Virus record (IMG/VR): IMGVR_UViG_2778261638_000005
Location: 1 to 64,000 of that record
Source: a virus
Lineage: Duplodnaviria; Heunggongvirae; Uroviricota; Caudoviricetes
Reading direction: 5' to 3' (one strand)
Length of the DNA: 64,000 nucleotides
Below are positions 1-62,450 of this stretch, piece by piece (positions within the stretch are counted from its first letter, which is position 1; every line of letters begins with the position of its first letter). The notes below the pieces were generated by a model. The model was not told where the DNA came from. It was given only the letters and a program-made list of their open reading frames with translations, and did no database searches. The position numbers were made by a program, and so were the translations under genes.

Positions 1-2250
1 TCATGATTGGCTCCATGGCAACCACTTACCTTCAATCTTTAGTTGAGTCCAGATTCGCCCATTTACTGGCTCAGACTCATAAAAATTGATAATTCCTATT
101 GATTTATCTTTACTTTTTTCTTTAATAACAAAAATACCGGAAGTAACATTAATTGGTTTTCCTGTCGATTCTGGAAATGCATAATAGAATACTCCTCGTT
201 TTGCTCCATGAATATCCCCATTTGTCCAGTCATAAATATCGGCTGTATCTTTTTTCGACTGTTCGGCCGTAAGGCGTGCTTGACTCCAGAATTCTATGCC
301 GGAACAGAAAGCAGAACCGGTTGATACATTAACAGTAAGAGTATGCCAACCACGAGAGTTGATACGAAGATAGTTGTTAATTTCTGTCTTTGTCGTTGGT
401 TTCAAATAGCCTATGGGCTGATTAACAATATTAAATCCAAAGTTTATCCTCAACATTGAGGTATCATTCGAATATGAAAAATCTCGATTTATATCAAGAG
501 GTTTAGGTGGCATAATATTATTTCCATCAATATAAACATTAACCACCGAACCAGAAGGAACATAAAGGATAGGCCATGCTATAAGCTCATCGCTCTCTGC
601 AAAGAAAGACCATGTTACTCTTTCTCCTGCTGATATATCTAAGCATCGATTGCCAACGATATTATCACCATATGCAAAAGCAGCTTCAGCAGAATTATTA
701 TAGTATTTGTAAATGTCACTGGCTAACCTCGGTGAATTAATTACTATCGGATCGTAAAGTTTTCTGATAGTCAATTGTGAGCCATCAGAAACAACTGTTT
801 TTCGCATTACCAGATCACCGATAAATGCAGCGGCTATCTTAAATCCCCACGCAGAAGATGCATTGAGAACCAAGTGCACCGGATCTCCAAATCGAGTTCC
901 AGCATTAATTGATTGCGTGGCCTCAGCGTAGATATTGTCTCTGTAGCCTGCCATTAGCTCCACACTATCAATAACAGGAATCGAGTACTTATCGGCAAGG
1001 TATTTTAATGCATTCCCCATTTGTTGAACATCAACTCGCTTAACTGTCGGGAATGGATCGCTTGGGCTAGAAGTAGAATAAGTTTCGTATGCTTTATCAA
1101 ATCGCAACGGTAATGGCGTCAACAAAACAACTGGATGCCCCCAAGTTAGCTCCCTAATAATCAGCCTCTCAATCCAGAAAGTGTATTGCTCAATGTTACC
1201 TACTAATGCATAACCGTATTGTGCCGATGCGTCATTAGTACCGAAGTTAATCAACGAAATATCACCAGAATGATTATCCGTAAAAGTTTCAAAAGCATCT
1301 TGCGCGCAGAAACCTGACCTAGCTCGACTTATGGTGGTTACTTTGCCTGCCCCATATGCACTATTCATTGCTACGCGAAATTGAGTCTGGACGTTTTCAG
1401 AGTCTCGTACAGAGTTAGAGTCGCCGTACCAAGTTACAGAAAATACTTTTCCATCACGCAATTTTTTCAAATTTTCAGCTAATAAGTTTCTCTGAATATA
1501 ACTGAACCAGTCAGCATGAGAAAGAGCATCGCCGACTGTATTAGATGGATAAGTCAAATCTCCAGAAAAACCTGATAATCCAGCCCCTGTATTCTTGCCA
1601 AGCTCGATCATAATTTCTGTTGCCGACCCAGAAGGAGGAAGAACAACAATTGCATTACCTGAACTATCAAACACAGGCATTTTATTAGCTCTTTCTTTCG
1701 CTGATGGTAATTGGTTTATAGGCTCAGGAACACGAAGGCTCCTGTTCATATTTCCACTAACCTGTATATCTACATAGTTCTTAGTTGCTGCATCCTGTGG
1801 TTCAGTCGGATCACGCAAATTTTTGATATAATTATCCAGAGCATCATAATACTTTGCCACAAATAATGGTTTTCGAAGTGTAAGGCTGAACAAACTGCGA
1901 ACATGCTGGATTAGCATAGTTAGCTTATCAAAAGCATCCTCATGCACTTCTGCAAAGAACTTACCCTGATTGCGTAGATCAGTTTCCTGCGTAACCGGGA
2001 GTTCTCGTGATATAGAAATCTTATGACCGTTAGCCAATGCCTTTGACACAATTACATTTCCACCGTTGTATCCTCCAGCCCCGGTAACTGTGTAATCAGT
2101 ATCGAGAGCTAGCACAGCGATATTTTCATCAAGGTCAACCACTTGTACTACCAGATCAGATTTCTGGAAAATCCTGAAGGTATAAGGGAATGTCGTTGTA
2201 ACACCGTTACCAATGTATTCGTTGTGGTCAACTTCGGTTGAGACCGTCAT
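1..2250 (-). CDS. Tailspike/tail fibre protein with GDSL/SGNH esterase-like central domain (749 aa); stop codon at window position 1..3
   Basis: N-terminus MTVSTEVDHNEYIGNGVTTTFPYTF resembles conserved phage tail-fibre/tailspike adaptor domains; internal motif VTWYGDSNS fits a GDSL/SGNH hydrolase block I; last gene of the virion module. Confidence 0.6.
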   Translation of the reverse strand: MTVSTEVDHNEYIGNGVTTTFPYTFRIFQKSDLVVQVVDLDENIAVLALDTDYTVTGAGGYNGGNVIVSKALANGHKISISRELPVTQETDLRNQGKFFAEVHEDAFDKLTMLIQHVRSLFSLTLRKPLFVAKYYDALDNYIKNLRDPTEPQDAATKNYVDIQVSGNMNRSLRVPEPINQLPSAKERANKMPVFDSSGNAIVVLPPSGSATEIMIELGKNTGAGLSGFSGDLTYPSNTVGDALSHADWFSYIQRNLLAENLKKLRDGKVFSVTWYGDSNSVRDSENVQTQFRVAMNSAYGAGKVTTISRARSGFCAQDAFETFTDNHSGDISLINFGTNDASAQYGYALVGNIEQYTFWIERLIIRELTWGHPVVLLTPLPLRFDKAYETYSTSSPSDPFPTVKRVDVQQMGNALKYLADKYSIPVIDSVELMAGYRDNIYAEATQSINAGTRFGDPVHLVLNASSAWGFKIAAAFIGDLVMRKTVVSDGSQLTIRKLYDPIVINSPRLASDIYKYYNNSAEAAFAYGDNIVGNRCLDISAGERVTWSFFAESDELIAWPILYVPSGSVVNVYIDGNNIMPPKPLDINRDFSYSNDTSMLRINFGFNIVNQPIGYLKPTTKTEINNYLRINSRGWHTLTVNVSTGSAFCSGIEFWSQARLTAEQSKKDTADIYDWTNGDIHGAKRGVFYYAFPESTGKPINVTSGIFVIKEKSKDKSIGIINFYESEPVNGRIWTQLKIEGKWLPWSQS

Positions 2251-2896: not shown

Positions 2897-5371
2897 TTAT
2901 TGCGGAGTGACATCCTGCGGTCGCCACCAGTATGTCTGGTTAAACTCTTTCTTCGAACGTTGCTCCATTTTACGCAAATAGCCTGGTGAAAAATACTCCT
3001 GCATCTGGTTAAAGATCATATGATCGAGAGCCGCCTTCAAGTACCAGAGATTCGCACCTGGCATCAGCCCCTTCCCAAGCTTAACCAGATCACCACCAGT
3101 CTGCTCATTCTTCCCTTCCACAGCATTTAACGGTATGCCCTGAGCAATCTTCACTACGTCATCAACCAGACCAGCTACCGGGCCAAACATCGACGCCAGC
3201 GCGCCGCTTCCGTACCTCGTGTGATCTGACAATAAAAAGTCACCGTAAAGGCCAAGACCACCACCTTTCAGCAGAGCACCAAGCCAAAATTTAGCAGCAT
3301 CTTCTCCTGTCATCTCTCGAGGATTACGACCAGACGCAAGGTCGTTAAGTTGCTGCGACAAAGCGCCAAGAATGGTCGTACTGGCAATAAACGTCGCAAT
3401 ATATGCCGCACGCCCACCAGCAGACGGCATACCCATAGCGCGTGACCAGTGACGCATAACCACCGAGATAGGGAACGATTTAAACAGGAAAACACTTCTC
3501 GTTAATTCACCTTTCCATGTTCCACGCTGAATACCAGAACCGGTTATCAGTTGCTCACGTGCTCCCGGTGTAATAACAGCCATATCAACTTCTTCAGTTA
3601 CGGCACCGAGCAGTTTACGCATTGCCTCAAATTTCACGCGTTCAGGCTCACCAAGATGTTTAACTGCTAAATCAGGGATACGCATAATGCTTTCCGGTGT
3701 CAGCATCGTATTATTACCGTTCCCCCAGTCCTCCTGTTGCGCCAGCTTCCATACGCTCCAGTCTGTGTCAGTAATCCCTTTGCTTTTCAGGATACGAAAA
3801 TCAGAGTCATCGAGGCTACGAAGGTCTGGTGTCCGTGACACTACTTCTCCCAGGCTTCCCATCATAGTTACGCCATAGGCGCGCTTGTGCGCATCTGACC
3901 ATGCTGTAAGCCCACTGGCACGCATTACCGCCGTTGCCGCCCAACGAGACACAGACGGCCCCATATTATCCATCGCCCAGCGGTTAACGCTGCCAAGTAG
4001 AGATTCCATCGCCAGACCAGCTCGGCGCGCCCGCGCAAGCTCAGTACGGTTCGTTGGGTCCATAGCTTCAAGCTGGTTGCGGAATAACTGGTTCATTGGA
4101 AGGTTGGTAACCTTCGCAGACAGATACATGGTTCCAAGATCAGAGAACGATGACAGCAACGCGGATCCGAGTCTGCTGGCAACCAGCCAGTTGCGGATAT
4201 TGTCAGACCATCGCGCGATGTGCGGATTCGCTACAGGCTGTGTCTTTCCGGAAATAAAGTTGTACAGATTCTCTGTGTTGTTCGCCAGCCGCTCGACTTT
4301 ACCGGTTTTACTCGGGTTAGCTGTTGCCGTTTCTGCCTTAACCTGATCAAGAAGGGAGCGGAAAACATGATCGGGGTTTGGACCATATGTTTCCACCAGT
4401 GCAATATCTTTACTGATACCTTCCAGGTGACCGACCATGATTTCCCATAGAGAGCGATCGCCATAAAGTTGCTGATATTGCAGATAGGAATCTGCATCTT
4501 TGAAATATATCTGTCGTGATGCATTACCACGGTTAGCACGTGCGCCGGAAATTCGCATTCCGGTATCAGTAAGCTTATTCAGCCCACCAGTAGCGATCGT
4601 GTTATAAGCCTCTCCAAGAAATGCAGACAACTCGGCATCGTTCATCAGTTGTCCATCGGCTCGGATATAATATTTGCGATCCAGCTTACCTATAACATCG
4701 CTAACCCACTTATCCTTTGATACCGCCCCAACCTTTTCCATAGAATGATGTTGAGGGATCCCCCAGTTTTCGAGATAGCCAATGTCCCCACCAGCATCAT
4801 TAAACCGGCGGCGCAGTAGCTCTGTCACTTCTCTCCACGCCTTAGCACCTTTTCTTGCTTTAGCATTGCCAGTATTTTGCCCCCGCATTTCATATACCAG
4901 GTCACGTACGCCCGCTTCATCTTCAAACAGACCAAAAAAGCGAGGATCAACTGCTTCGAATGCCTCCTGCAATTGACTCAATGCATAATCACGGGTGGCT
5001 TTTGTTCTGGATTCAACAGAGAGGAAATTCGATTTACCGTCTGCATTAAAAGCAATAGTACGGTTAAGAGCGCCAAGTTTCCCATCAGCCCCTTGATAGC
5101 TATTGATAAATTTATCCAATCTCTGACGTGCGGCTATAGTGAGGGCCACACGACGTTTCTTTAATGCCGCTTCTCGCTGTAATTCTTCAGATGCCAATTG
5201 TGCTGCACGATATAGCCGCTCTGATTCGGAAAGTTGTCTCCACGACATCGTGTCATCACGAGCAATGGAGCGCATATTTCGATAAATGCGGTCTTCAATG
5301 TTCTGTATTTCTCGCGCCGTTAACGTGCGCTGCGCCGCCTGCTGGACCGCTTGTATACATTCCTGTCTCAT
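2897..5371 (-). CDS. Internal virion / ejection protein (824 aa), T7 gp15/gp16-like position
   Basis: Large ORF in a run of three large genes between the tail tubular genes and the tailspike; coiled-coil-rich N-terminus; assignment by position. Confidence 0.45.
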   Translation of the reverse strand: MRQECIQAVQQAAQRTLTAREIQNIEDRIYRNMRSIARDDTMSWRQLSESERLYRAAQLASEELQREAALKKRRVALTIAARQRLDKFINSYQGADGKLGALNRTIAFNADGKSNFLSVESRTKATRDYALSQLQEAFEAVDPRFFGLFEDEAGVRDLVYEMRGQNTGNAKARKGAKAWREVTELLRRRFNDAGGDIGYLENWGIPQHHSMEKVGAVSKDKWVSDVIGKLDRKYYIRADGQLMNDAELSAFLGEAYNTIATGGLNKLTDTGMRISGARANRGNASRQIYFKDADSYLQYQQLYGDRSLWEIMVGHLEGISKDIALVETYGPNPDHVFRSLLDQVKAETATANPSKTGKVERLANNTENLYNFISGKTQPVANPHIARWSDNIRNWLVASRLGSALLSSFSDLGTMYLSAKVTNLPMNQLFRNQLEAMDPTNRTELARARRAGLAMESLLGSVNRWAMDNMGPSVSRWAATAVMRASGLTAWSDAHKRAYGVTMMGSLGEVVSRTPDLRSLDDSDFRILKSKGITDTDWSVWKLAQQEDWGNGNNTMLTPESIMRIPDLAVKHLGEPERVKFEAMRKLLGAVTEEVDMAVITPGAREQLITGSGIQRGTWKGELTRSVFLFKSFPISVVMRHWSRAMGMPSAGGRAAYIATFIASTTILGALSQQLNDLASGRNPREMTGEDAAKFWLGALLKGGGLGLYGDFLLSDHTRYGSGALASMFGPVAGLVDDVVKIAQGIPLNAVEGKNEQTGGDLVKLGKGLMPGANLWYLKAALDHMIFNQMQEYFSPGYLRKMEQRSKKEFNQTYWWRPQDVTPQ

Positions 5372-7179: not shown

Positions 7180-9689
7180 TGCGGAATATCTCCGGAGAAT
7201 CTCTGACGCTTCTGTGTCAGATTAAGAACAACGGGAGAACCATCATCTTTCAGCAGATAACCAGTACCAAGTTTCACCAGGTACTGACTATCGCCGTAAC
7301 TTTGCAAACCATACTGACCAGGCGGTGTTTTTATCCCGGTGCCGACAACTTGTTCATTCCAAGCCTGATTAACCTGCTTATCGAATTGCTCTGCAGACAT
7401 TCCCCACGGCAAAAGGACATTCCCCATTCCGTTATAGTCATGCACGCCACCTGTAGCTACGTTAACAGCCTGTTTCCAGATATCAGTGTCAATTTCGCCT
7501 GATATCACGCCTTTTTTCGCCATCACACCAGCGTAATAGTCCTTTGCGATCTCGTATGCCATTGATGCCCCCTGAGCATCACCAGCAAATGCATCCTTCA
7601 CCATGTCAGAAAACTCAAGGCGAAGATCAGCATCTTTAGGCATCGGAATACCTTTCGCATCATCAGTACCTTTACGAGCCGCCGCGCCAGCAAGAATTGT
7701 CTGCGCAGCGGTTTCAGGAGACACGGAAACATCCGGATTAAACCAGTTTGTTTCTGCCAAAATACCACCAGGCTTGTCCATCAGTATCCCGGCAACGGCA
7801 GCAGATGGAGCGTTGGCACTGATCTGCTGTAGTGCTGACATATACACCTGCCCACCACCAGTGCTCTGCCTGATGGTATCGAGATATGCTGCCTGTTGGG
7901 AAACTGGAGCATCACGAAAGAAAACACCGATCTGATTGGCCTCGTCTTTGGAAAAGAACGTCAGTGGAGTGCCATATGACTTAGCAAGGTCACTGATCTG
8001 AGCGGCACGCAAGGCAACGCTCTGTCCAAAGTTATCCTTATTGCTCATGTCGATAGGCTTTGCCTGTCCGGAGGCAAGAGAGAACTGCACAGGATCCGAC
8101 TGCCGCTGCTTTATCACCTGATTTGCAGCCGAAACAACGTTGTCATAAAGAGCTGCGCGAGACGCATAACCCTCTCCTGTCTCACCAGTATCCGGGCGTA
8201 ATTGCTCAACATATGCGGTAATGCTGCTTGTCGGCATGTTGCGGAAAGAGCCTATATACTGTCCGGCGATCTGCGTATTTCTGAACTCGGTATATCGCAG
8301 GTTTCCTTCTCTGACGCCATAAGCTGCAATAAAATCATCCTCACCAGGTGGGTTAGGAAATTCAACGCCACGCATATACGCAGCCGTCGCATCGCGAACC
8401 TTGCTGTCAATTATCGTTTTATATTCAGCCTGCTGCTGCCGACGCAGTTGATCCGCCTGTCGCATAAAACTTGCCTGAGCCTCAGGAGATGCCGCATCGA
8501 ATGCTGCATTACCGGTATAGCGTTTGGTGTTGGTTGGAATTGTTGATAAACCAAGTGCTGCACTGACACCAGCAGTTAACTGCTGATCACTGTATGGCTG
8601 GCTACCGTTCTCATGATGGATAATGGCTGCACAAAGCGCCTTCAGGGTATCAGGATTAGATGCATCGAGAGGATCATCAGCAGAAACGCCAAGTTGTTCG
8701 CACACTGCTTTGATATACGACATAGTATCATTTTTATCAGTAGGCGGTGCCCAGCGATTAATTATCTCGCTGACGGTATCAATACCCTGCCTCTGATACG
8801 ACATCAGGTTTCGCCCTAATGCACGAATCCCGTGTTCAGGTGTTTCGAATTTAGCAAATCGACCATCATCACCGGTCTGGCCTACCCACGGATTAGTTTT
8901 GCTGTATTCGAGATTTCCTGGGTTATTGTTGCGTATGCCACGGGCACGCTCGGAAGAGTCACTATCTGCTACAGCACGGCGAGCTCCAGCAGCAGTATCA
9001 CTTAACTCGCCATTATTTTGGATGAATGCGGTCGCATTGTTTGCCGACCACTGGGACAATGCGGCATCAGCAACCTTCTCTTTAAACTCGATTTTCTTGG
9101 CCTGGATTTGCTCGTCGCTCCAGCCATGCGCAATGCCGTAATCCTCAATTTGCTGGAAAGTTTGCTTATTAGCCAATACATATGCGGCATTGTCGCCATA
9201 CAATGCTGCGGCATTTTTACCATTATTCAGCAGCGTCGCCTGAAACTGACCTTCTTCGTAGGCATTAATTTGCCCTATCTCGTGCCGCCCGGCCTGCGTA
9301 GTGAACTGAATGCGCTGCTGCTGCGCCTGCTGCATGAAAGCATTACGAGTCTGTTCATCCGGCAGCGACATAGCCAGTTGCTCGACCTGGGCATCAAACT
9401 GCTGCGTATACTCCTGACCTTTTCCAATAGCATTTTTCCCTTTCAGGTTAAGCAAACCTGTTTCAGGGTTATTCAGCAGATCGCTGCTTATCTGGCTTAA
9501 GCTAAGAGAAGCATCCTGAGCCATAGCAACATTCGCACGCTGTTTTGCCTGCGCAATAATACCTGCATATTGCTCTGCAACATCGCCAAGTACATCACCG
9601 ACATTTGGTGTCTGAAACGATGAGAATCCCTGCGTCGAAATCCCTCTGCTCTGAACCTGACGGCCCGATGTTGTTGGTACAACTGGCAT
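7176..9689 (-). CDS. Internal virion protein with putative peptidoglycan-hydrolase domain (837 aa)
   Basis: Motif GIRNNNPGNLEYSKTNPWVGQ...FAKFETPEHGIRA resembles virion-associated muralytic domains of podovirus structural proteins; recollection, not a search hit. Confidence 0.45.
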   Translation of the reverse strand: MPVVPTTSGRQVQSRGISTQGFSSFQTPNVGDVLGDVAEQYAGIIAQAKQRANVAMAQDASLSLSQISSDLLNNPETGLLNLKGKNAIGKGQEYTQQFDAQVEQLAMSLPDEQTRNAFMQQAQQQRIQFTTQAGRHEIGQINAYEEGQFQATLLNNGKNAAALYGDNAAYVLANKQTFQQIEDYGIAHGWSDEQIQAKKIEFKEKVADAALSQWSANNATAFIQNNGELSDTAAGARRAVADSDSSERARGIRNNNPGNLEYSKTNPWVGQTGDDGRFAKFETPEHGIRALGRNLMSYQRQGIDTVSEIINRWAPPTDKNDTMSYIKAVCEQLGVSADDPLDASNPDTLKALCAAIIHHENGSQPYSDQQLTAGVSAALGLSTIPTNTKRYTGNAAFDAASPEAQASFMRQADQLRRQQQAEYKTIIDSKVRDATAAYMRGVEFPNPPGEDDFIAAYGVREGNLRYTEFRNTQIAGQYIGSFRNMPTSSITAYVEQLRPDTGETGEGYASRAALYDNVVSAANQVIKQRQSDPVQFSLASGQAKPIDMSNKDNFGQSVALRAAQISDLAKSYGTPLTFFSKDEANQIGVFFRDAPVSQQAAYLDTIRQSTGGGQVYMSALQQISANAPSAAVAGILMDKPGGILAETNWFNPDVSVSPETAAQTILAGAAARKGTDDAKGIPMPKDADLRLEFSDMVKDAFAGDAQGASMAYEIAKDYYAGVMAKKGVISGEIDTDIWKQAVNVATGGVHDYNGMGNVLLPWGMSAEQFDKQVNQAWNEQVVGTGIKTPPGQYGLQSYGDSQYLVKLGTGYLLKDDGSPVVLNLTQKRQRFSGDIPQ

Positions 9690-52091: not shown

Positions 52092-52514
52092 TTATTTTGG
52101 GCTTTCAGGTGAGAACAGATCAGGCTGATGACGTCGTGTATGCAGCTTTCTCTGGCGGGCAATAATCTGGTAGATCTGCGGCTGGGACAGGCGGTACTGG
52201 CGACGCAGTTCTTCCATGTTACGACCATTAAACTGGCAGTAAAGCAAATCGTCACGTAACGCGGTCAGGATCGTATCGCCGCAGGGGATGTAAAACTGCC
52301 GTCCGCCCAGAAAACAGGACAGGGCAACGGCCTGTTTACGGGCAAGCTCACGGGGATTGCTGACGTTCTGGCGTTTCAGTTCGTTTTCCAGAACATCAAT
52401 CAGATCAACCACCGAACGGGGCCAGCGTGATTCCAGTTCCGGGGCCGGGATGTTATCAATATGTCCGATTAACTGGCGAATTGCCGGATCGTGTTCAAAT
52501 AAATCATGCTGCAT
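52092..52514 (-). CDS. Late-gene transcriptional activator C (Mor/C family), 140 aa
   Basis: Paralog of 53493..53882; C-terminal HTH; position directly upstream of lysis genes as in Mu. Confidence 0.7.
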   Translation of the reverse strand: MQHDLFEHDPAIRQLIGHIDNIPAPELESRWPRSVVDLIDVLENELKRQNVSNPRELARKQAVALSCFLGGRQFYIPCGDTILTALRDDLLYCQFNGRNMEELRRQYRLSQPQIYQIIARQRKLHTRRHQPDLFSPESPK

Positions 52515-52849: not shown

Positions 52850-53410
52850 TTACCCATGCAGAACCTCCCGACAGGCGCTGGCGAGCAGATCCAGACGGTT
52901 AAACCAGCCATTCAGATATTTCCCCTGCGAGGCACTGGATTTGATAATCCCTGCGTAATAGCGGGAACGACGCAGGAAGCACTGCAACAGCAGCCAGTCA
53001 GTATCGGCACGCAGAACGGCTGCGCGTGTGTTTTTACCGACGATGCCATCATCATCAACACCTGCTGCCGCCTGGAGGATCTGAATCGCGCGTTTAACAC
53101 CGAGCTGAACGGCAGCATCAAAAACGAATAAGGAAACGCCATCAGGCCATTCGTTACACTTTGCCGCCAGCCAGTAATCACGCCAGTAGATCTGCGCCGC
53201 CTGCTCGCGGGTTAAATCCTTAATGCGGGTATCAGGTTTTCCGTCACCGTTAACATCGGTTTTGCCATCAATAACGCCGTCGCGACGGTCAGAGATACCG
53301 TATTTCGTTTCGCCGCCACGGTCAGTGGGATCATCAACATATCCACCTTCAACATCAGGTCGTATAACGAAATTCAGCGAATGAAGGAATGCAGGGGAAA
53401 ACTCAGGCAT
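52850..53410 (-). CDS. Glycoside hydrolase family 108-like muramidase with C-terminal peptidoglycan-binding domain (186 aa)
   Basis: Motif EGGYVDDPTDRGGETKYGI (GH108 signature) and DGIVGKNT (PG_binding_3-like). Confidence 0.65.
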   Translation of the reverse strand: MPEFSPAFLHSLNFVIRPDVEGGYVDDPTDRGGETKYGISDRRDGVIDGKTDVNGDGKPDTRIKDLTREQAAQIYWRDYWLAAKCNEWPDGVSLFVFDAAVQLGVKRAIQILQAAAGVDDDGIVGKNTRAAVLRADTDWLLLQCFLRRSRYYAGIIKSSASQGKYLNGWFNRLDLLASACREVLHG

Positions 53411-53492: not shown

Positions 53493-53882
53493 TTACAGAA
53501 GTGAAGGCTGGTACTGGCGGTATTTCAGCCGTCGCATCCGGCGAATGGCCTTGTAAACCGTATTGAAAGTGACACCATAACGGGTGGTCAGTTCGCTGAC
53601 GTTGCGACCGTTAAAATCATTCCAGATACGCAAATCCCGAATCAGCGAGTCCAGAACCTGACCGCGCGGAATGTAGACCTGACCGCCCCCCAGATGCTTA
53701 CAGATAGCCACAACAATCTCCAGTGAATGAGCAGGATCAACACCCAGCCGGGACAATTCCCCGCGCAGTAAATCGTTCAGCTCCGCCAGCAGTGCCGGAA
53801 AGCGTGACGTATCCTCTGCGGGATTGTCAAGATGTGCCAGGATGGTGTCATCCTGCAAATCACCAAATAAATCTTCCGTCAT
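53493..53882 (-). CDS. Middle-operon regulator Mor (Mor/C family), 129 aa
   Basis: Paralog of C with conserved C-terminal HTH block; position after gemA. Confidence 0.7.
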   Translation of the reverse strand: MTEDLFGDLQDDTILAHLDNPAEDTSRFPALLAELNDLLRGELSRLGVDPAHSLEIVVAICKHLGGGQVYIPRGQVLDSLIRDLRIWNDFNGRNVSELTTRYGVTFNTVYKAIRRMRRLKYRQYQPSLL

Positions 53883-54430
53883 TGTGCCATCCTCCGCGTC
53901 TTTCTGGCATGGGCATAAGCCGCCGTCATGGCATCATAGCCGCGCAGTTCACGACCGGACGGACTGACCGGCAATGGAAGCCCGTGACGGGAAAAGGCTT
54001 CACGAATACAGCGGATGTGCCACTGCTTGAGTGTTTCGAGGACTGTCAGCAGCGTGTCGCCATGACACCACGCCAGTGTGGAAACGCCCTGTCCGCCGTT
54101 GCGTTTCGCGGTCAGGCGTTGAACATATCTGTCCAGCGCCACATCACCGCCATCGGTAATAAAACCGTCTTCTGCCATCTGCTGCCAGATTTTATACACC
54201 TTCTCGCGGGGTGTGACATGCCCCTTAAACCGACGGCGTGGGTGTTTATTCTGCTTCTTAAAGCCGCGTTCTTTCATGGCATCGAGCACCTGTTTCAGTT
54301 GCGTAACCGTAAGCTCGCGGCAACTGATTTTGCCCGTTTTCTGCATCAGAAAAGCGCGGTAAGTGTCGTCGTCGAGTTGTAGATCACGACGGGCGACATG
54401 AATTAATTTAATCAGGGATGTGCGACTCAT
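53879..54430 (-). CDS. GemA-like regulatory protein (about 183 aa from MSRTSLIKL)
   Basis: GGAGG RBS before ATG 54430; position before mor. Confidence 0.6.
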   Translation of the reverse strand: MSRTSLIKLIHVARRDLQLDDDTYRAFLMQKTGKISCRELTVTQLKQVLDAMKERGFKKQNKHPRRRFKGHVTPREKVYKIWQQMAEDGFITDGGDVALDRYVQRLTAKRNGGQGVSTLAWCHGDTLLTVLETLKQWHIRCIREAFSRHGLPLPVSPSGRELRGYDAMTAAYAHARKTRRMAQ

Positions 54431-54503
54431 GATCGTACCTCCGGAAAGGGGGCGGTGCTGCAACACCGCCTGTACTATTGATAACACTGAAAATGGAGAC
54501 AAC

Positions 54504-54743
54504 ATGTCTGTAGAAAACAATGCGTCAATCACTTTTAACCTGGTTTCAGGTCTGATGGTGAAACTTGTTCGTAACAAGATTCTGACAAAGTGGGAAGCTC
54601 AATCCATACTGGCCTCTGCAATTCTTGAAAACGTTCAGAACCAGGAGGGGGTTACTGATTCGGATCTTGATGCACTTCGTCTGAAACTTGCTATGTCGGA
54701 TTTCAGCGTTGAAAAAGAGCCTCCACAAGACGATCAGGCGTAA
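54504..54743 (+). CDS. Hypothetical 79-aa protein on the strand opposite to the Mu early operon
   Basis: ATGGAGACAAC-ATG (GGAG RBS) at 54504; overlaps the 3' end of the minus-strand gene 54703..54999. Confidence 0.4.
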   Translation: MSVENNASITFNLVSGLMVKLVRNKILTKWEAQSILASAILENVQNQEGVTDSDLDALRLKLAMSDFSVEKEPPQDDQA

Positions 54744-54999
54744 TCACGTCTGATGGTTTAAGTCCCAGCCTGCGGCGAATAAATGCGTCGCGGGCTTTTT
54801 TGTTATCCAGTGAAACTTCATCTGCAATAATATTAATTTCATGCTGGATAATATTCACAGTAACACGAGCAGAAAGCCCTTCACGGATAGCAATATCAAT
54901 AATATCGCGCATACGCTCAAGCATTTTAGCTTTCACCAGTTCTTCATCCAGGTCTTTAGGCGTAAATTTAGTTTCATTATTCATATTATTCACCTTCAC
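54703..54999 (-). CDS. Hypothetical early protein (98 aa)
   Basis: ORF in Mu semi-essential early region. Confidence 0.4.
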   Translation of the reverse strand: MKVNNMNNETKFTPKDLDEELVKAKMLERMRDIIDIAIREGLSARVTVNIIQHEINIIADEVSLDNKKARDAFIRRRLGLKPSDVITPDRLVEALFQR

Positions 55000-55168
55000 A
55001 ATTCATGCACGCCGTGTCATCGCCCATATCGCAGTGGTTGCATTTCAGCCCGCCACAATGAGGGCACTCTTTCAGATATTCAGGGGCTTCATTACCGCAG
55101 GTCGGACATGCCTGTTTCACCGTGGTAAATTTCCCCAGCCACGAATACGATGTTTCATTGTTTTCCAT
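54986..55168 (-). CDS. Hypothetical zinc-ribbon protein (60 aa)
   Basis: CPTCG...CPHCG...CNHC...CMNC motifs. Confidence 0.4.
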   Translation of the reverse strand: MENNETSYSWLGKFTTVKQACPTCGNEAPEYLKECPHCGGLKCNHCDMGDDTACMNCEGE

Positions 55169-55706
55169 TGTTTACCCCCGCCTGTTCCAGTGCCATAACT
55201 GGTGCGTCAGAACAGTCAAGAATGAGATAGCGCAGTACATGGTCGGTGATATTCCATGCGTTTGAGCTGCAAATAAAACGCCCTGGCCGGATATCAATAT
55301 AAGCCATCACAAAACGGGGCATTCCCTGTTCGCACATCCTGTTATCCACTTCTGCAACGATGTGAACGGATTCACAGGTCAGCACGCCCGTTGCAAACTC
55401 TTTTGCCAGCGCGGGGATGGTATTACCTTCCACCCAGGGTAATGAGCGACGCCAGTTGCACCACACCGCATCATCAACAGCAGGCTGCTCAGTTGCGTTT
55501 CGTCTTACAGGCGGCGTCGGACGTGGGCGCGGAACGTCATAAAATCCGTTGCATTCGGTGAGAACACCGGCATCAACCGCATCACGCAGGAAATACACCA
55601 TTGACGAGGGCAGCATATTCATTTTTTCAGCCAGAACCCCGCAGGTCAGACGCCCGTAAGCCCGTAATAATGTGCTGACACCATTCAGAACTTTTGCATC
55701 AATCAC
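55155..55706 (-). CDS. Hypothetical early protein (183 aa)
   Basis: ORF, translationally coupled. Confidence 0.45.
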   Translation of the reverse strand: MIDAKVLNGVSTLLRAYGRLTCGVLAEKMNMLPSSMVYFLRDAVDAGVLTECNGFYDVPRPRPTPPVRRNATEQPAVDDAVWCNWRRSLPWVEGNTIPALAKEFATGVLTCESVHIVAEVDNRMCEQGMPRFVMAYIDIRPGRFICSSNAWNITDHVLRYLILDCSDAPVMALEQAGVNNGKQ

Positions 55707-56355: not shown

Positions 56356-56880
56356 TTAAATACCGGCTTCCTGTTCAAACGGAATAATGGAAAAATCTTC
56401 AATTCCCGATTTAACCGTAATTCCGGCAACACCTGCGACGGCTTTTGGTTCCAGTAAAATCGCCTCCTTGTTGATTTCCTGCTTCGTGCGAATAAAGCGT
56501 TGCAGGCCAAGACGCTCCAGCGTTTCCATCACTGCATCCATACCACGAATACTTACTGATGGTGGACGGACCCGCCACGATACATCACCGGTGACAAGAT
56601 TCGCCGTCTTCACTTTGCCGCCGTTCGTCAGTTCGTCGCGGTTCGCTTCACACCATCCCTGAACGCCTTTTGAAAGGGTTTCAATATCGGTTTTAATCGG
56701 TGCAATTCGGGCCGCAAATTTCTCCGTAATTTCCGCGATGGCATCATTCATTTCCGTTTCCAGACGTGATGCTTCGCGCTGTAAATCCCCGATGCGTTTA
56801 ATATCGGTAATCACCGCATCGCGGTTTTGTGGCACATAAGCCGCTGCGGCACTCTTGATACGTTTTGCTGGTTTAGCCAT
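56356..56880 (-). CDS. gam: Gam host-nuclease inhibitor (Mu Gam-like), 174 aa
   Basis: Size, coiled-coil N-half, position in Mu early region. Confidence 0.75.
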   Translation of the reverse strand: MAKPAKRIKSAAAAYVPQNRDAVITDIKRIGDLQREASRLETEMNDAIAEITEKFAARIAPIKTDIETLSKGVQGWCEANRDELTNGGKVKTANLVTGDVSWRVRPPSVSIRGMDAVMETLERLGLQRFIRTKQEINKEAILLEPKAVAGVAGITVKSGIEDFSIIPFEQEAGI

Positions 56881-58392: not shown

Positions 58393-59325
58393 TTACCACC
58401 AGTTCAGTAATTTCGGGTTGCTGTAAACCTCTTTAAAAGCTGCTTTAATGTAGCCTTTGGATAGAGGAACGCCTTTCCCGCTGGCAGCCAGCCACGCCTG
58501 ATTCAGCGTATGAGTTAATACACGTAATGCACCTGGTTTTTCCGCGATGCTCTGCATGAGTGATAATTCATCTTCGCCCTCAATGCCCCAGGCTTTCGCA
58601 ATTGCCACCACGTCAGCCTTTTTGGCTTTACGTAGTTGCTTTGTTCTGGCGAAACGACTGAACAAACGTGCAAGGTCATCTGTTCCCCGGTGTGTGGCTT
58701 TGGCTAACTGGTGTGGGTTGCCAATCAATACCATCCCGACGCCGGTTGCATCCTGAATGGCGCGTAACTGCTCCAGCCCGTCCATGCTCAGGTGGTCAGC
58801 TTCATCCACAATAACCAGACCGCGTGTGCCATTCAGTTTTTTGCGAATGGCGCGGGTCAATGCGCCTTTATTCCTTTGCGGATTATCAATTCCCAGCGCG
58901 TCTGCCAGCTCCAGCAGACACTCAGTCACTGTTGAGTGTGCAGGGGAAAGGGTCACCATCCAGGTATTAGATACACGGTTACTGTATTCACGGGCCGCAA
59001 CGGTTTTACCAACACCCGGCACACCAACCAGAACGCTGATACAGCCCATAACACGCACGGTCTGAAACAGCTCGCGCAAATCACGGAGGGTTTGTGTTTC
59101 CACAAGTTGTGGTGCGCCAGGTAACTCCAGACTTTTTTGCCAGCTCTGATGCCACATCAGTAATTTGTCATGCATCCCTTCGGTATCACCTTTGTAACGG
59201 CCTTTGCGAAGTTCAGAAAGAGTGGCCTCCGACACCCCCGCTTCTTTAGCAATAGCGCTTTGTGTTTTTACGCCGTCAGTAATAAGTGTGTTAATCGTGT
59301 TGAAAACATCATTAATATCGGTCAT
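58393..59325 (-). CDS. Transposition ATPase B (MuB-like AAA+), 310 aa
   Basis: N-terminal HTH, Walker A GVPGVGKT, Walker B VIVDEADHL; follows A. Confidence 0.85.
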   Translation of the reverse strand: MTDINDVFNTINTLITDGVKTQSAIAKEAGVSEATLSELRKGRYKGDTEGMHDKLLMWHQSWQKSLELPGAPQLVETQTLRDLRELFQTVRVMGCISVLVGVPGVGKTVAAREYSNRVSNTWMVTLSPAHSTVTECLLELADALGIDNPQRNKGALTRAIRKKLNGTRGLVIVDEADHLSMDGLEQLRAIQDATGVGMVLIGNPHQLAKATHRGTDDLARLFSRFARTKQLRKAKKADVVAIAKAWGIEGEDELSLMQSIAEKPGALRVLTHTLNQAWLAASGKGVPLSKGYIKAAFKEVYSNPKLLNWW

Positions 59326-59398: not shown

Positions 59399-61486
59399 TC
59401 AGGCCAGCGGATCATCCTGTTCCTGTATGGCTACAAGCTTCTGCAAACCCAGCCTGAAATCGCGTTCATAATCTTCGTCGTAATCCTCCTCATAATCCTG
59501 TTGCTGGATGGTTACCGTATTGCCAACCGGGCGATAAACATTATCCAGCCAGGGTTCAGCCTGTTTGTGCTCCAGTATCTGAATGCCTTCATCCTCAGCA
59601 TCACGAATTTTTTCCTCAGCACGTTTGCGCATTCCTTTAATACGCTGCTGTTGTTTGTGATATTCAGCACTGACAGCAAAGGCTGCGCGTTTATTGCCGT
59701 TCCATATCGCCTCACAGATAAAGCTGCCGTCCTTGCGACGTACCGTAATTCGCTCGGCGTCATGAATGTCATAACTGATAAGTACTTTGCGACCGTGTTC
59801 GTCACGCAACTCCGGCGCGTAGTAAATATTGTTCAGCCACTGAATTTCGCACCGTCTTACCGGGCGTTCCACCATCGGGCGGAACATGTCGCGCAGCTCA
59901 AGATCACTCAGCCACTCAATTTCGGTGCCTTCTTCTGCCAGGCGTTTTTTTCTGAACTCTGCCGGGCTGTAATGCCGCCCGTTCGGTTTCATTGGCAGCT
60001 CAGAATGCGGGCGGTTGTTGTACCATTCCACGCCTTCACGAATAGCCTCAATAAGCTCCGCCCACGATGGTAGCTCGCGCATTGCAGCTTTCTGGCGGTC
60101 GTTCAGAGGCTTGTCCTGTTGCATGGCGTTAAACGCTGAACGCAGATCACGGTTAAGTACACGCAACGATTCCCGGTCAGCACCCTTGCCAAAATAGGTG
60201 CGATACCTCCTGGCTATACGCATCGGCAGTGTCCGGTTCAGGCGTTCAATAATGCCGCGCCCCTGTGGATTACCGGCAATACCGGTAGGGTGTTTAATCC
60301 CCAGGCGGGGCAGAATACCCACGATCTCTTTGTCCAGTATGTCAGCCGTTTCACCAGAACCATTATCCGAGTAATACAGAAACGGTTTTCCGTGGTTGCG
60401 AATGCCGTGCTGTATCGCACCGGCAACGGCGAACACGTTCTCGGCAAGGTCAAGACTCCAGCCAACAACAAACCGGGTTCCACCGTCGATCACAAATGTA
60501 ACTTCCGGTGAGAATGGACGCCCGTGGATCGGATGTGCACATTTCAGCTTCATACCGTGACCGTCACCAATCCAGACATAATTCACCGGCATAGCTGTCC
60601 AGTCGCGGCGGGTGAATCCTTCAAGCTGACGGTATTCACTGCCGGTAACGCGCCCTTTTTGTTTCACCACTTCCGGCAGTTTTTTCATGGCATACCGGAC
60701 AACATCATAGGAAGGCATCACCTCCAGCATGTATGGTTCGTCCGCATGGCGACGCTGCCAATCAGCGACAAAATCCTCATAGGCTTCAGACATAGGCCTG
60801 CCGTTAGCCTGACGATACTGCGCCAGAAATTCAGGCAGCCAGCTAATTTCTTCCGGTTTTATTTCGTCGCGCTTTCCTGGTGCCAGTAACAGCAGTCGTT
60901 CTGCGGCATTCTGTGCTTTGTTAAACGCAGCTATCCAACGTTTGAGCGTAATTGCGCTCAGAGTTCGCTCTTTTCCTTTACGGGCATTAGCAGTAATGAC
61001 CAAAGATTCCAGGCGTTCTTCCAGGTTACCCTGCGCTAACCGCGACACAATAAAACGTATAGCGCTGGCACAACTGAATCCCGGCTCCTGGCTAATTCGT
61101 AGAACTTCACAGACAAGAGCAATGCGCGCTTCTGCAACTTTACGTTGATTTTCCGTAAGCGCATTCAGACGCTCTTCTACCAATTGTGGCGAACCGCGAT
61201 ATGCCTCAACAGGCTGTACAACATTTTGTTTGCGTTCACGCTTTACAGGAGGCTGGGTAGTTATCTCCCGCGGGGCGCTTGCCATCAGTTGAGCTACATG
61301 TCGCTCACGTAACGCCCGTTGTGTAACCGGAGGGAGGCAGTCGATGCTGTATTCAATGGTTTTTGAACCCGCACGTTTGCGCCTGAAATGCTCAGATGAG
61401 GCCAGTTTCCTTATGGAATACCGCACCCCTTGCGCAGTTCCCGGCATACCTGGTAACCCTACAAGCTCATTAACTGATACAAACAT
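59399..61486 (-). CDS. DDE transposase A (MuA-like), 695 aa
   Basis: Size, position after ner, N-terminal end-binding-type domain, acidic C-terminus. Confidence 0.85.
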   Translation of the reverse strand: MFVSVNELVGLPGMPGTAQGVRYSIRKLASSEHFRRKRAGSKTIEYSIDCLPPVTQRALRERHVAQLMASAPREITTQPPVKRERKQNVVQPVEAYRGSPQLVEERLNALTENQRKVAEARIALVCEVLRISQEPGFSCASAIRFIVSRLAQGNLEERLESLVITANARKGKERTLSAITLKRWIAAFNKAQNAAERLLLLAPGKRDEIKPEEISWLPEFLAQYRQANGRPMSEAYEDFVADWQRRHADEPYMLEVMPSYDVVRYAMKKLPEVVKQKGRVTGSEYRQLEGFTRRDWTAMPVNYVWIGDGHGMKLKCAHPIHGRPFSPEVTFVIDGGTRFVVGWSLDLAENVFAVAGAIQHGIRNHGKPFLYYSDNGSGETADILDKEIVGILPRLGIKHPTGIAGNPQGRGIIERLNRTLPMRIARRYRTYFGKGADRESLRVLNRDLRSAFNAMQQDKPLNDRQKAAMRELPSWAELIEAIREGVEWYNNRPHSELPMKPNGRHYSPAEFRKKRLAEEGTEIEWLSDLELRDMFRPMVERPVRRCEIQWLNNIYYAPELRDEHGRKVLISYDIHDAERITVRRKDGSFICEAIWNGNKRAAFAVSAEYHKQQQRIKGMRKRAEEKIRDAEDEGIQILEHKQAEPWLDNVYRPVGNTVTIQQQDYEEDYDEDYERDFRLGLQKLVAIQEQDDPLA

Positions 61487-61488
61487 TT

Positions 61489-61725
61489 TTATGCCACCTT
61501 ACGAGCGTAACGGCTGGGCCAGATCTCCTCCGGCGCAACACCAATAGCATCAGCAATAATGCGCTCATATTTTGGGCATTTGCGGTACAGGGCATTCTTT
61601 AAAGAATCCTGGTTTAAACCGGCTTCAATGGACAGAGAGCGTAAAGTAAAACCTTTTACATGCACCGCCGCGACAACATGCGCGGGGTGCCAGTCCTGTT
61701 TAACAACTTCATTTATAGACATCAT
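61489..61725 (-). CDS. ner: Ner-like DNA-binding regulator (78 aa from MMSINEV)
   Basis: C-terminal ...EEIWPSRY matches the Ner signature; AAGGA RBS before ATG 61725. Confidence 0.8.
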   Translation of the reverse strand: MMSINEVVKQDWHPAHVVAAVHVKGFTLRSLSIEAGLNQDSLKNALYRKCPKYERIIADAIGVAPEEIWPSRYARKVA

Positions 61726-61865
61726 TCGTTTATCCTTAAAAGTTATCTGCGCGGATAACACCGCCGGATAATCTCTACAGATAAATATTTGATCACTACA
61801 AAAGAAAAGTAAAGGTGTTTTATCTCTTTCTTTGGTTGTTTTTATCTACAAAAGGATATTTCTTT
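61726..61865. promoter_or_regulatory. Divergent early/repressor control region with repeated TTATC/GATAA half-sites (putative operators)
   Basis: TTATCTGCGCGGATAA palindrome at 61733..61748 and further GATAA/TTATC repeats between ner and c. Confidence 0.5.
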
Positions 61866-62450
61866 ATGAATCATATGGTTAACAGAAAAGAAAGAAGCAC
61901 TGAAAAAGAAAGTGATTTTTCTTTTCCTGTGTTTCAAAAAGAAAGCATTAAAGAGCGCCTAGCCATGCTAATGCGCGGGCGCTCCAAGACTGCCGTGGCG
62001 AAGGCGTGGGGGCTACCGTTCTCAACACTTAACAACTACTTTGAGAAAGATGCGACACCATCTCTACAAGTAGCTAGTCAGATTGCTTTTGCAGAAGGGG
62101 TGAGCATTGATTGGCTTGTTTTTGGCAAGGAGGATATAGAACCAATATCACCTAAAATAGATGAAAACGTCCAATTGCCCCTAGATATAACGCTACAGCG
62201 CCTTCTTGCTATACTAAGTGCTTTAGAAGCATCAGAGGCAGAGCGATTATCAAAAATCCTCGCGCTAAATGGAGCTAAGTACTTGTCACGGTTACTTGAA
62301 CCAGAGAATCAAGAACTAATCCAACTTGAAGGACGAAAACGTGCAGCAGCTCTACTTTTAGATCATTTATCGGATGAAAGAGTTAGAGAGATTTTGGCAG
62401 AAATTGAAAGCGATAAACTCTCAAGTAGTTTAGAATCGAAGGCGGGCTAA
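61866..62450 (+). CDS. Repressor c (Mu Rep-like), 194 aa from MNHMVNRK
   Basis: Divergent from ner at the element left end; N-terminal HTH-like segment; AAAGGA RBS. Confidence 0.6.
   Translation: MNHMVNRKERSTEKESDFSFPVFQKESIKERLAMLMRGRSKTAVAKAWGLPFSTLNNYFEKDATPSLQVASQIAFAEGVSIDWLVFGKEDIEPISPKIDENVQLPLDITLQRLLAILSALEASEAERLSKILALNGAKYLSRLLEPENQELIQLEGRKRAAALLLDHLSDERVREILAEIESDKLSSSLESKAG

Follow-up and report, generated by a model that had tools for sequence, protein, structure and literature searches.

A small opposite-strand gene at the gemA–gp14 junction of a Mu-type prophage, probably a diverged member of the Mu gp15 group

Introduction

Is a short ORF that runs against the early operon of a Mu-type prophage a real gene, and if so, what could its product do there? 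The question is raised by a stretch of 64,000 nt (the window; all positions given below are counted from its first nucleotide) that carries a Mu-type prophage whose early operon is on the minus strand. An earlier reading made from the letters of the window (the sequence-only reading) had pointed to a 79-aa ORF on the plus strand inside this operon, had called such a gene unusual for Mu-type phages and had suggested that it could be a moron or a regulatory/antisense unit. Annotation pipelines already call the ORF, and taken by itself it is a small hypothetical gene. Comparison with related loci suggests a fuller picture: a real, highly diverged gene of the Mu gp15 group that forms a moron-like, exchangeable accessory unit on the opposite strand. 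To this reading, taken as a whole, we assign a probability of about 0.55.

The ORF and its surroundings

The repressor gene c (61815..62450) is on the plus strand, the strand of the 79-aa ORF; on the minus strand follow ner (61489..61761), A (59399..61486), B (58393..59325), gam (56356..56880), a gp11-like gene (55155..55706), a 60-aa zinc-ribbon gene (54986..55168), a 93-aa gp14-like early gene (54703..54984, or to 54999; 44% identical to Mu gp14), gemA (53879..54430; Pfam GemA E = 1e-31, 97% identical to Mu GemA), mor (53493..53882) and C (52092..52514). As a separate observation, the interval between mor and the gp18-like gene that precedes C holds, downstream of mor, a gene for a 186-aa protein (52850..53410, minus strand) in which glycoside hydrolase 108 and PG_binding_3 domains are found; this gene is absent from Mu at that place and present in related Salmonella and Escherichia loci.

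The ORF occupies 54504..54743 on the plus strand, from an ATG start to a TAA stop, and the open stretch in its frame reaches back to a GTG at 54420. A Shine–Dalgarno (SD) sequence GGAG (54495..54498) is situated five bases 5′ of the ATG. The gemA gene and the ORF are divergent, with start codons 73 nt apart, and the ORF shares its last 41 nt with the 3′-end of the gp14-like gene. [quoted passage not shown] The product, as computed from the sequence, has a mass of 8.7 kDa and a pI of 4.4, and is without a hydrophobic segment.

Contents of the slot upstream of gemA

From IMG/VR we took 62 GemA-encoding loci, 43 of which were enterobacterial Mu-like. In these 43 loci the slot just upstream of gemA holds different cargo genes which, when present, are always on the strand opposite to gemA. 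We distinguished five related types (types 1–5), namely the window type, Mu gp15, a gp15 relative (∼53% identical to gp15), the 119-aa type of D108 and an 80-aa type; another group of loci carries an unrelated 134–138-aa protein (phrog_585, with a weak match to DUF2513), and in some loci the slot contains nothing. A purine-rich SD sequence was seen 5–9 nt before the ATG in all five related types.

About one enterobacterial Mu-like locus in four carries the phrog_585 gene (L025, L026, L027, L034, L035, L039–L041, L047, L048 and L062); it is on the minus strand of those loci and starts 30 nt from the gemA start codon. This version of the slot is without the palindrome described below and has its own hairpin terminator.

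For Mu-type phages an opposite-strand gene at this place is normal and has been annotated before. [quoted passage not shown] Therefore, of what had been claimed, the opposite-strand gene in a Mu-type early region stands and its being unusual for Mu-type phages does not. The D108 record (NC_013594) has a gemA–gp14 gap of 376 nt (7906..8281) with no annotated gene; the gap holds the 119-aa opposite-strand ORF (phrog_38610; 472..831, minus strand, in our locus L082) with an SD sequence, a palindrome upstream and, downstream, a 13-bp terminator followed by a T-run. In the literature on Mu gp15/Mup15, on the gem operon and on Mu RNA-seq we found nothing about this gene.

Evidence for a protein-coding gene

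The exact protein was found on >100 contigs (from Salmonella enterica and others). Two diverged variants, with amino acid identities of 89% and 85% and with 20 and 27 nucleotide differences, are both intact; among the three variants, which differ by 8–11% at the DNA level, the ORF never occurs elsewhere than in the gemA–gp14 slot of Mu-like prophages. In the part free of the gp14 overlap we obtained dN/dS values of 0.28–0.29 (Nei–Gojobori), with a synonymous excess in each of three variant pairs (Fisher’s exact test, p = 0.009, 0.002 and 0.003). Conservation and dN/dS in related Mu-like prophages, which had been named earlier as one way to check the ORF, came out on its side.

However, dN/dS alone cannot identify the coding strand because the antisense frame with common wobble positions gives a ratio equal to that of the gp15 frame. 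The strand was decided instead by stop codons, by the codon-position pattern and by the quality of amino acid replacements. In the window type all five other frames are broken, each by at least two stops; the wobble-sharing antisense frame has 3–4 stops and a longest open run of 31–32 codons. Variable sites were tallied by codon position in the three types that allowed it; the order is 3 > 1 > 2 in each (23, 13 and 33 sites, summed, at positions 1, 2 and 3), and amino acids are replaced more conservatively when the sites are read in the sense frame rather than in the wobble-sharing antisense one. The GC skew is +0.11 to +0.15 across the ORF and negative in both flanks, a pattern that fits a coding strand opposite to that of the neighbors. 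Finally, an ATG-started ORF of at least 79 codons appeared on the plus strand in only 0.85% of shuffles of the 330-nt slot. We consider it very likely that this is a real gene which corresponds in position to Mu gp15.

Relation to Mu gp15

The positional equivalence of the window ORF and Mu gp15 is certain: the two share the slot, the opposite strand, the overlap with the 3′-end of gp14, the palindrome upstream and the terminator hairpin downstream, and they are close in size (79 and 88 aa). At the level of sequence the likeness is distant. The identity is 26% over 69 residues (BLASTP E = 0.088), there is no DNA similarity, and the match is below family thresholds; moreover, gp15 has been dropped from the revised GenBank record of Mu.

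Several comparisons nevertheless point, if weakly, in one direction. When all 2842 ORFs obtained from the fetched loci in six frames were searched with a window-type profile, the best non-self matches were all slot ORFs (E = 0.0024 to 0.17). Comparisons by hhalign among three groups gave P = 2.6e-4, 7.8e-5 and 1.3e-5, the same N-terminal segment being aligned each time; the first of these values, for the window type against Mu gp15, corresponds to a probability of 42%, below conventional thresholds. The two best PHROG matches of the window ORF, phrog_32893 (E = 0.038) and phrog_8747 (E = 0.15), are sub-threshold as well; the same two families are the top two for Mu gp15, and phrog_32893 links all five types, with E values from 1e-7 to 6e-4 for those other than the window type. 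The D108 119-aa ORF (phrog_38610) and the 80-aa version (P0011, phrog_32893-like) have the slot, orientation, palindrome and terminator as in the window and are the best profile matches of the window type (E = 0.0024 among local ORFs; hhalign P = 7.8e-5), although the D108 ORF differs by a longer acidic N-terminal extension and the identity is only about 17–24%.

All five types are collinear over their full length in the alignment. They have in common an N-terminal helix pair with the motif h-x-x-L-h-x-K-x-h-I/L-T-x-x-E-A/G-x-x-I, a third helix with L-R/Q-L and a closing acidic Pro-rich tail. Judging by these sequence comparisons, the window ORF is probably homologous to Mu gp15, and so is probably a new, highly diverged member of the uncharacterized Mu gp15 (Mup15) group, whose proteins are small, helical and for the most part acidic. 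A profile search of 1.84 billion representatives returned only the ORF’s own cluster, and tblastn of the 79-aa protein against 50,697 phage records gave no match; with global searches empty beyond the known slot ORFs, the group is small and confined to enterobacterial Mu-like elements.

The AF2 model of the product (mean pLDDT 68) has helices at residues 4–23, 29–46 and 52–64 and a disordered acidic tail. When this model was searched by Foldseek against PDB and BFVD, nothing was found below E = 0.5; the extended gp15 ORF of Mu (Q38493) appeared at rank 4 with E = 0.99, which we do not count as evidence. The window ORF had no Pfam match, none of the cargo types matched the PADLOC defence profiles, and the Rfam search of the region gave no match. 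A SHOCT-like domain (PF22746) was considered and set aside: only the type 3 relative matches it, at 16.0 bits versus a cut-off of 27, and the window ORF does not.

A terminator inside the gp14-like gene

Twenty-four nucleotides past the stop codon of the ORF, and wholly within the gp14-like CDS, we found an intrinsic terminator on the plus strand (54767..54796) which the sequence-only reading had missed: an 11-bp stem with eight G-C pairs, then TTTTTGTTAT to about 54806. Its folding z-score is −6.2. A terminator hairpin follows the gene in all five related types (1–5); its Mu counterpart is annotated in the revised GenBank record (AF083977.1) as a TransTermHP terminator at 7839..7873. Among nine distinct sequences, 89.7% of cells are compatible with pairing versus 37–52% in slid controls, and three pairs of the stem show compensatory changes. 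Several stem pairs are G-U on the plus strand, which makes them C-A mismatches on the minus strand, and in each of the nine sequences the plus-strand fold is the stabler one, with a margin of 0.7 to 8.8 kcal/mol over the minus-strand fold. In the window the arms of the stem code for A-R-D and R-R-R-L of gp14, in D108 for A-H-N and C-R-E-L; with different residues and the same stem, the terminator structure is therefore kept as the gp14 protein changes. A terminator that lies in the coding sequence of the opposite strand and carries compensatory substitutions is an example of dual constraint.

Another hairpin, weak and terminator-like, is located upstream of the ORF at 54319..54334 (plus strand), antisense within gemA: GGCAACTGATTTTGCC then CGTTTTCTGC. 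It was also flagged at the equivalent place in Mu, D108 and L025, and may merely reflect conservation of gemA.

The palindrome and the limits of the cassette

Between gemA and the ORF there is a perfect palindrome (54450..54471) with an 8-bp stem, 54450–54457 paired with 54464–54471 (GGCGGTG-N6-CACCGCC). A GC hairpin had been noted earlier at 54451..54470, ahead of the ORF; the hairpin is there, two nucleotides longer, but it lies in the conserved gemA block, since DNA identity to Mu (97%) runs through gemA and the palindrome and ends at 54472. Thus the palindrome probably belongs to the gemA side rather than to the ORF unit. It falls in the region equivalent to the ‘semi-early promoter’ that AF083977.1 annotates at 8151..8217, over the palindrome region of Mu, and, in the simplest reading, would be a regulatory element or a 5′ stem-loop of the gemA–mor message. 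We also considered that it might be a repeated operator and rejected this: it occurs once in the window, with near-matches no commoner than expected by chance. In L052 (∼2420–2445, with the 80-aa type) the palindrome is kept and its 6-nt loop is reverse-complemented (TTGCAG versus CTGCAA, both read on one strand), as if the hairpin had been inverted.

The palindrome is also the left boundary of what is exchanged. Identity to Mu and identity to D108 both end at 54470–54472. With respect to D108, the non-homologous segment of the window is 54471..54791, from the palindrome to the terminator, with most of gp14 outside; with respect to Mu it is 54473..54958 and includes most of gp14. Swap boundaries that run from hairpin to terminator show that the unit acts as an exchangeable cassette. 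In three close relatives (L021, L037 and L059) the palindrome is kept and the opposite-strand ORF is lost; in L021 the start of gp15 (MENNV) is joined to antisense sequence of the zinc-ribbon gene. Such losses point to deletions and show that the gene is dispensable.

In comparison with Mu, the C-terminal two thirds of the gp14-like protein vary with the cargo type (44% identity), and its first residues as well as the flanking genes are 96–97% identical to Mu. It may be that gp14 and the opposite-strand gene are exchanged together.

The cargo of the slot diverges fast beside a gemA conserved at 93–97%. The GC content of the ORF is lower than that of gemA, and the gp14-like neighbor is equally low. 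A hairpin-to-terminator cassette with fast-diverging cargo is a pattern usual for genes of host interaction or phage competition; the proteins of the slot are thus reasonable candidates for functional screening.

Possible functions

Orientation as that of the repressor gene c, the unit’s own SD sequence and terminator, dispensability, replacement of the cargo and rapid divergence, taken together, make a moron-like accessory protein the function that we favor, though tentatively and at somewhat less than even odds. The unit consists of the SD sequence, the ORF and the intrinsic terminator, inserted between gemA and gp14 in the orientation of c, and would be transcribed, moron-like, independently of the repressed early operon. 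The product is predicted to be cytoplasmic, with three helices and an acidic tail that is disordered; it might bind a protein of the host or of a competitor phage, in the manner of exclusion, defence or counter-defence proteins, rather than serve Mu replication. As the unit ends inside gp14, its transcript would of necessity be antisense to some 95 nt of the early message.

How far does the anatomy agree with that of known morons? Antisense placement with respect to the lytic genes of a prophage is described as a mark of accessory (moron) loci (PMC7067206). Like phage morons (e.g. HK97 gp15, or the Salmonella prophage loci antisense to lytic genes), the window unit is compact, has its own terminator directly after the gene, is opposite to the surrounding operon and in the orientation of the repressor gene, has a lower GC content than gemA and, among close relatives, is present, absent or replaced with boundaries at the ends of the unit. 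It differs from them in that the gp14-like neighbor is equally GC-poor and in that no promoter is recognizable. The sequence-only reading had placed a possible promoter ahead of the ORF; on the plus strand upstream of the ORF the consensus scan found no sigma-70-like promoter at 9 of 12 positions, the relaxed scan (8 of 12, within 200 nt upstream) found none for any of the six cargo types, and a search in four related loci found none either. A moron-like anatomy (own SD sequence and terminator, variation of the cargo, orientation of c) is thus seen, except for a promoter of its own. A non-consensus or activator-dependent promoter is possible.

A likeness of another kind is to olg1/olg2 of the Pseudomonas transposable phage Fc02: small repressor-strand genes, transcribed in the lysogen, which overlap an early-operon gene of the opposite strand and bring about superinfection exclusion (PMC9936078). 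Fc02, too, is a Mu-like phage; its genes differ in being sited next to the repressor, on the repressor transcript, and the parallel is drawn from their description, not from sequence.

The lack of a recognizable promoter in six cargo types, which is the chief weakness of the moron-like reading, leaves room for two other roles, a lytic gene under an activator and an RNA like OOP of phage lambda. One could suppose that the ORF is an early or middle gene of the lytic cycle, e.g. a partner or modulator of GemA or gp14, with an activator-dependent promoter. It forms a divergent pair with gemA, with only 73 nt and a perfect palindrome between the two start codons; consensus −35 and −10 elements are lacking, as in the Mor- and C-dependent promoters of Mu with their non-optimal −35; and, from Mu to the window, gp14 changes along with the cargo type in its C-terminal two thirds. 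We regard this as unlikely: the palindrome, being single in the window, is not a repeated operator, the unit is lost or swapped for unrelated cargo in close relatives with gemA 93–97% identical, and the swap between the window and D108 leaves out most of gp14.

Somewhat less probable again is that the main product is a plus-strand cis-antisense RNA which ends in the gp14-like gene, with the ORF secondary or in a dual role, and which by pairing or by collision with early transcription tunes gemA–mor and the timing of the lytic cascade. As with OOP, a transcript opposite to the early operon would run over the 3′-end of an early gene and stop at an intrinsic terminator inside it, the overlap with the 3′-end of the gp14-like gene being at least about 95 nt. 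Orientation and terminator are retained even with unrelated replacement cargo, the terminator shows compensatory changes and a stability advantage specific to the plus strand, and there are precedents: OOP itself, antisense to the 3′-end of cII, and the antisense RNA STnc6030 of BTP1, which mediates exclusion (PMC7067206). But OOP is a short noncoding RNA, and the window unit carries a conserved 79-codon ORF under protein-level purifying selection, with SD sequence and ATG kept in all five types; a purely regulatory RNA needs no 79–119 open codons. The unit is missing from some close relatives, so that it is not essential to the early programme; the scans for a promoter and the Rfam search, negative for this locus, also speak against such an RNA. 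A dual role of the unit, as RNA and as protein, is possible. In its most ambitious form, which we hold to be improbable, the gemA–gp14 junction would be a dedicated opposite-strand slot between two conserved hairpins, one of which is the terminator in the gp14 CDS upheld by compensatory changes, the cargo being small, acidic, fast-diversifying exclusion or counter-defence proteins expressed from the prophage and the antisense overlap also modulating gemA–mor; if this were true, a unit of the slot would have both a protein role and an RNA role.

The last alternative, that there is no gene here, the true CDS being on the early strand (as Mu_54 in AF083977) or the slot being a noncoding spacer with a chance ORF, is very unlikely: it can appeal to the early-strand Mu_54 that stands in place of gp15 in the revised Mu record, to a Mu_54 frame open for 66–71 codons in types 2, 3 and 5 with a dN/dS equal to that of the gp15 frame, and to the plus-strand promoter that was not found, yet in the window type each minus-strand frame is interrupted (by 3–4 stops in the Mu_54-equivalent one), none of the five diverged types has a break in the plus frame, which is also favored by the pattern of codon positions and the quality of replacements, the terminator and the positive GC skew point to that strand, a chance ORF of such length is rare among shuffles, and PGAP as well as several phage records annotate the plus-strand gene.

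This bears on the annotation of Mu itself, where the records disagree: gp15 is given at 7896..8162, complement (3122..3388, plus strand, in our locus L001), and Mu_54, on the early strand, at 7960..8127 (3157..3324, minus strand, in L001). Mu_54 is the wobble-sharing antisense frame of gp15; this frame is open for 59–71 codons in types 2–5 and is broken by stops in the window type. With only the gp15-strand frame open, the window type helps to resolve the conflict, and the comparative evidence favors gp15 over Mu_54 in the Mu reference annotation.
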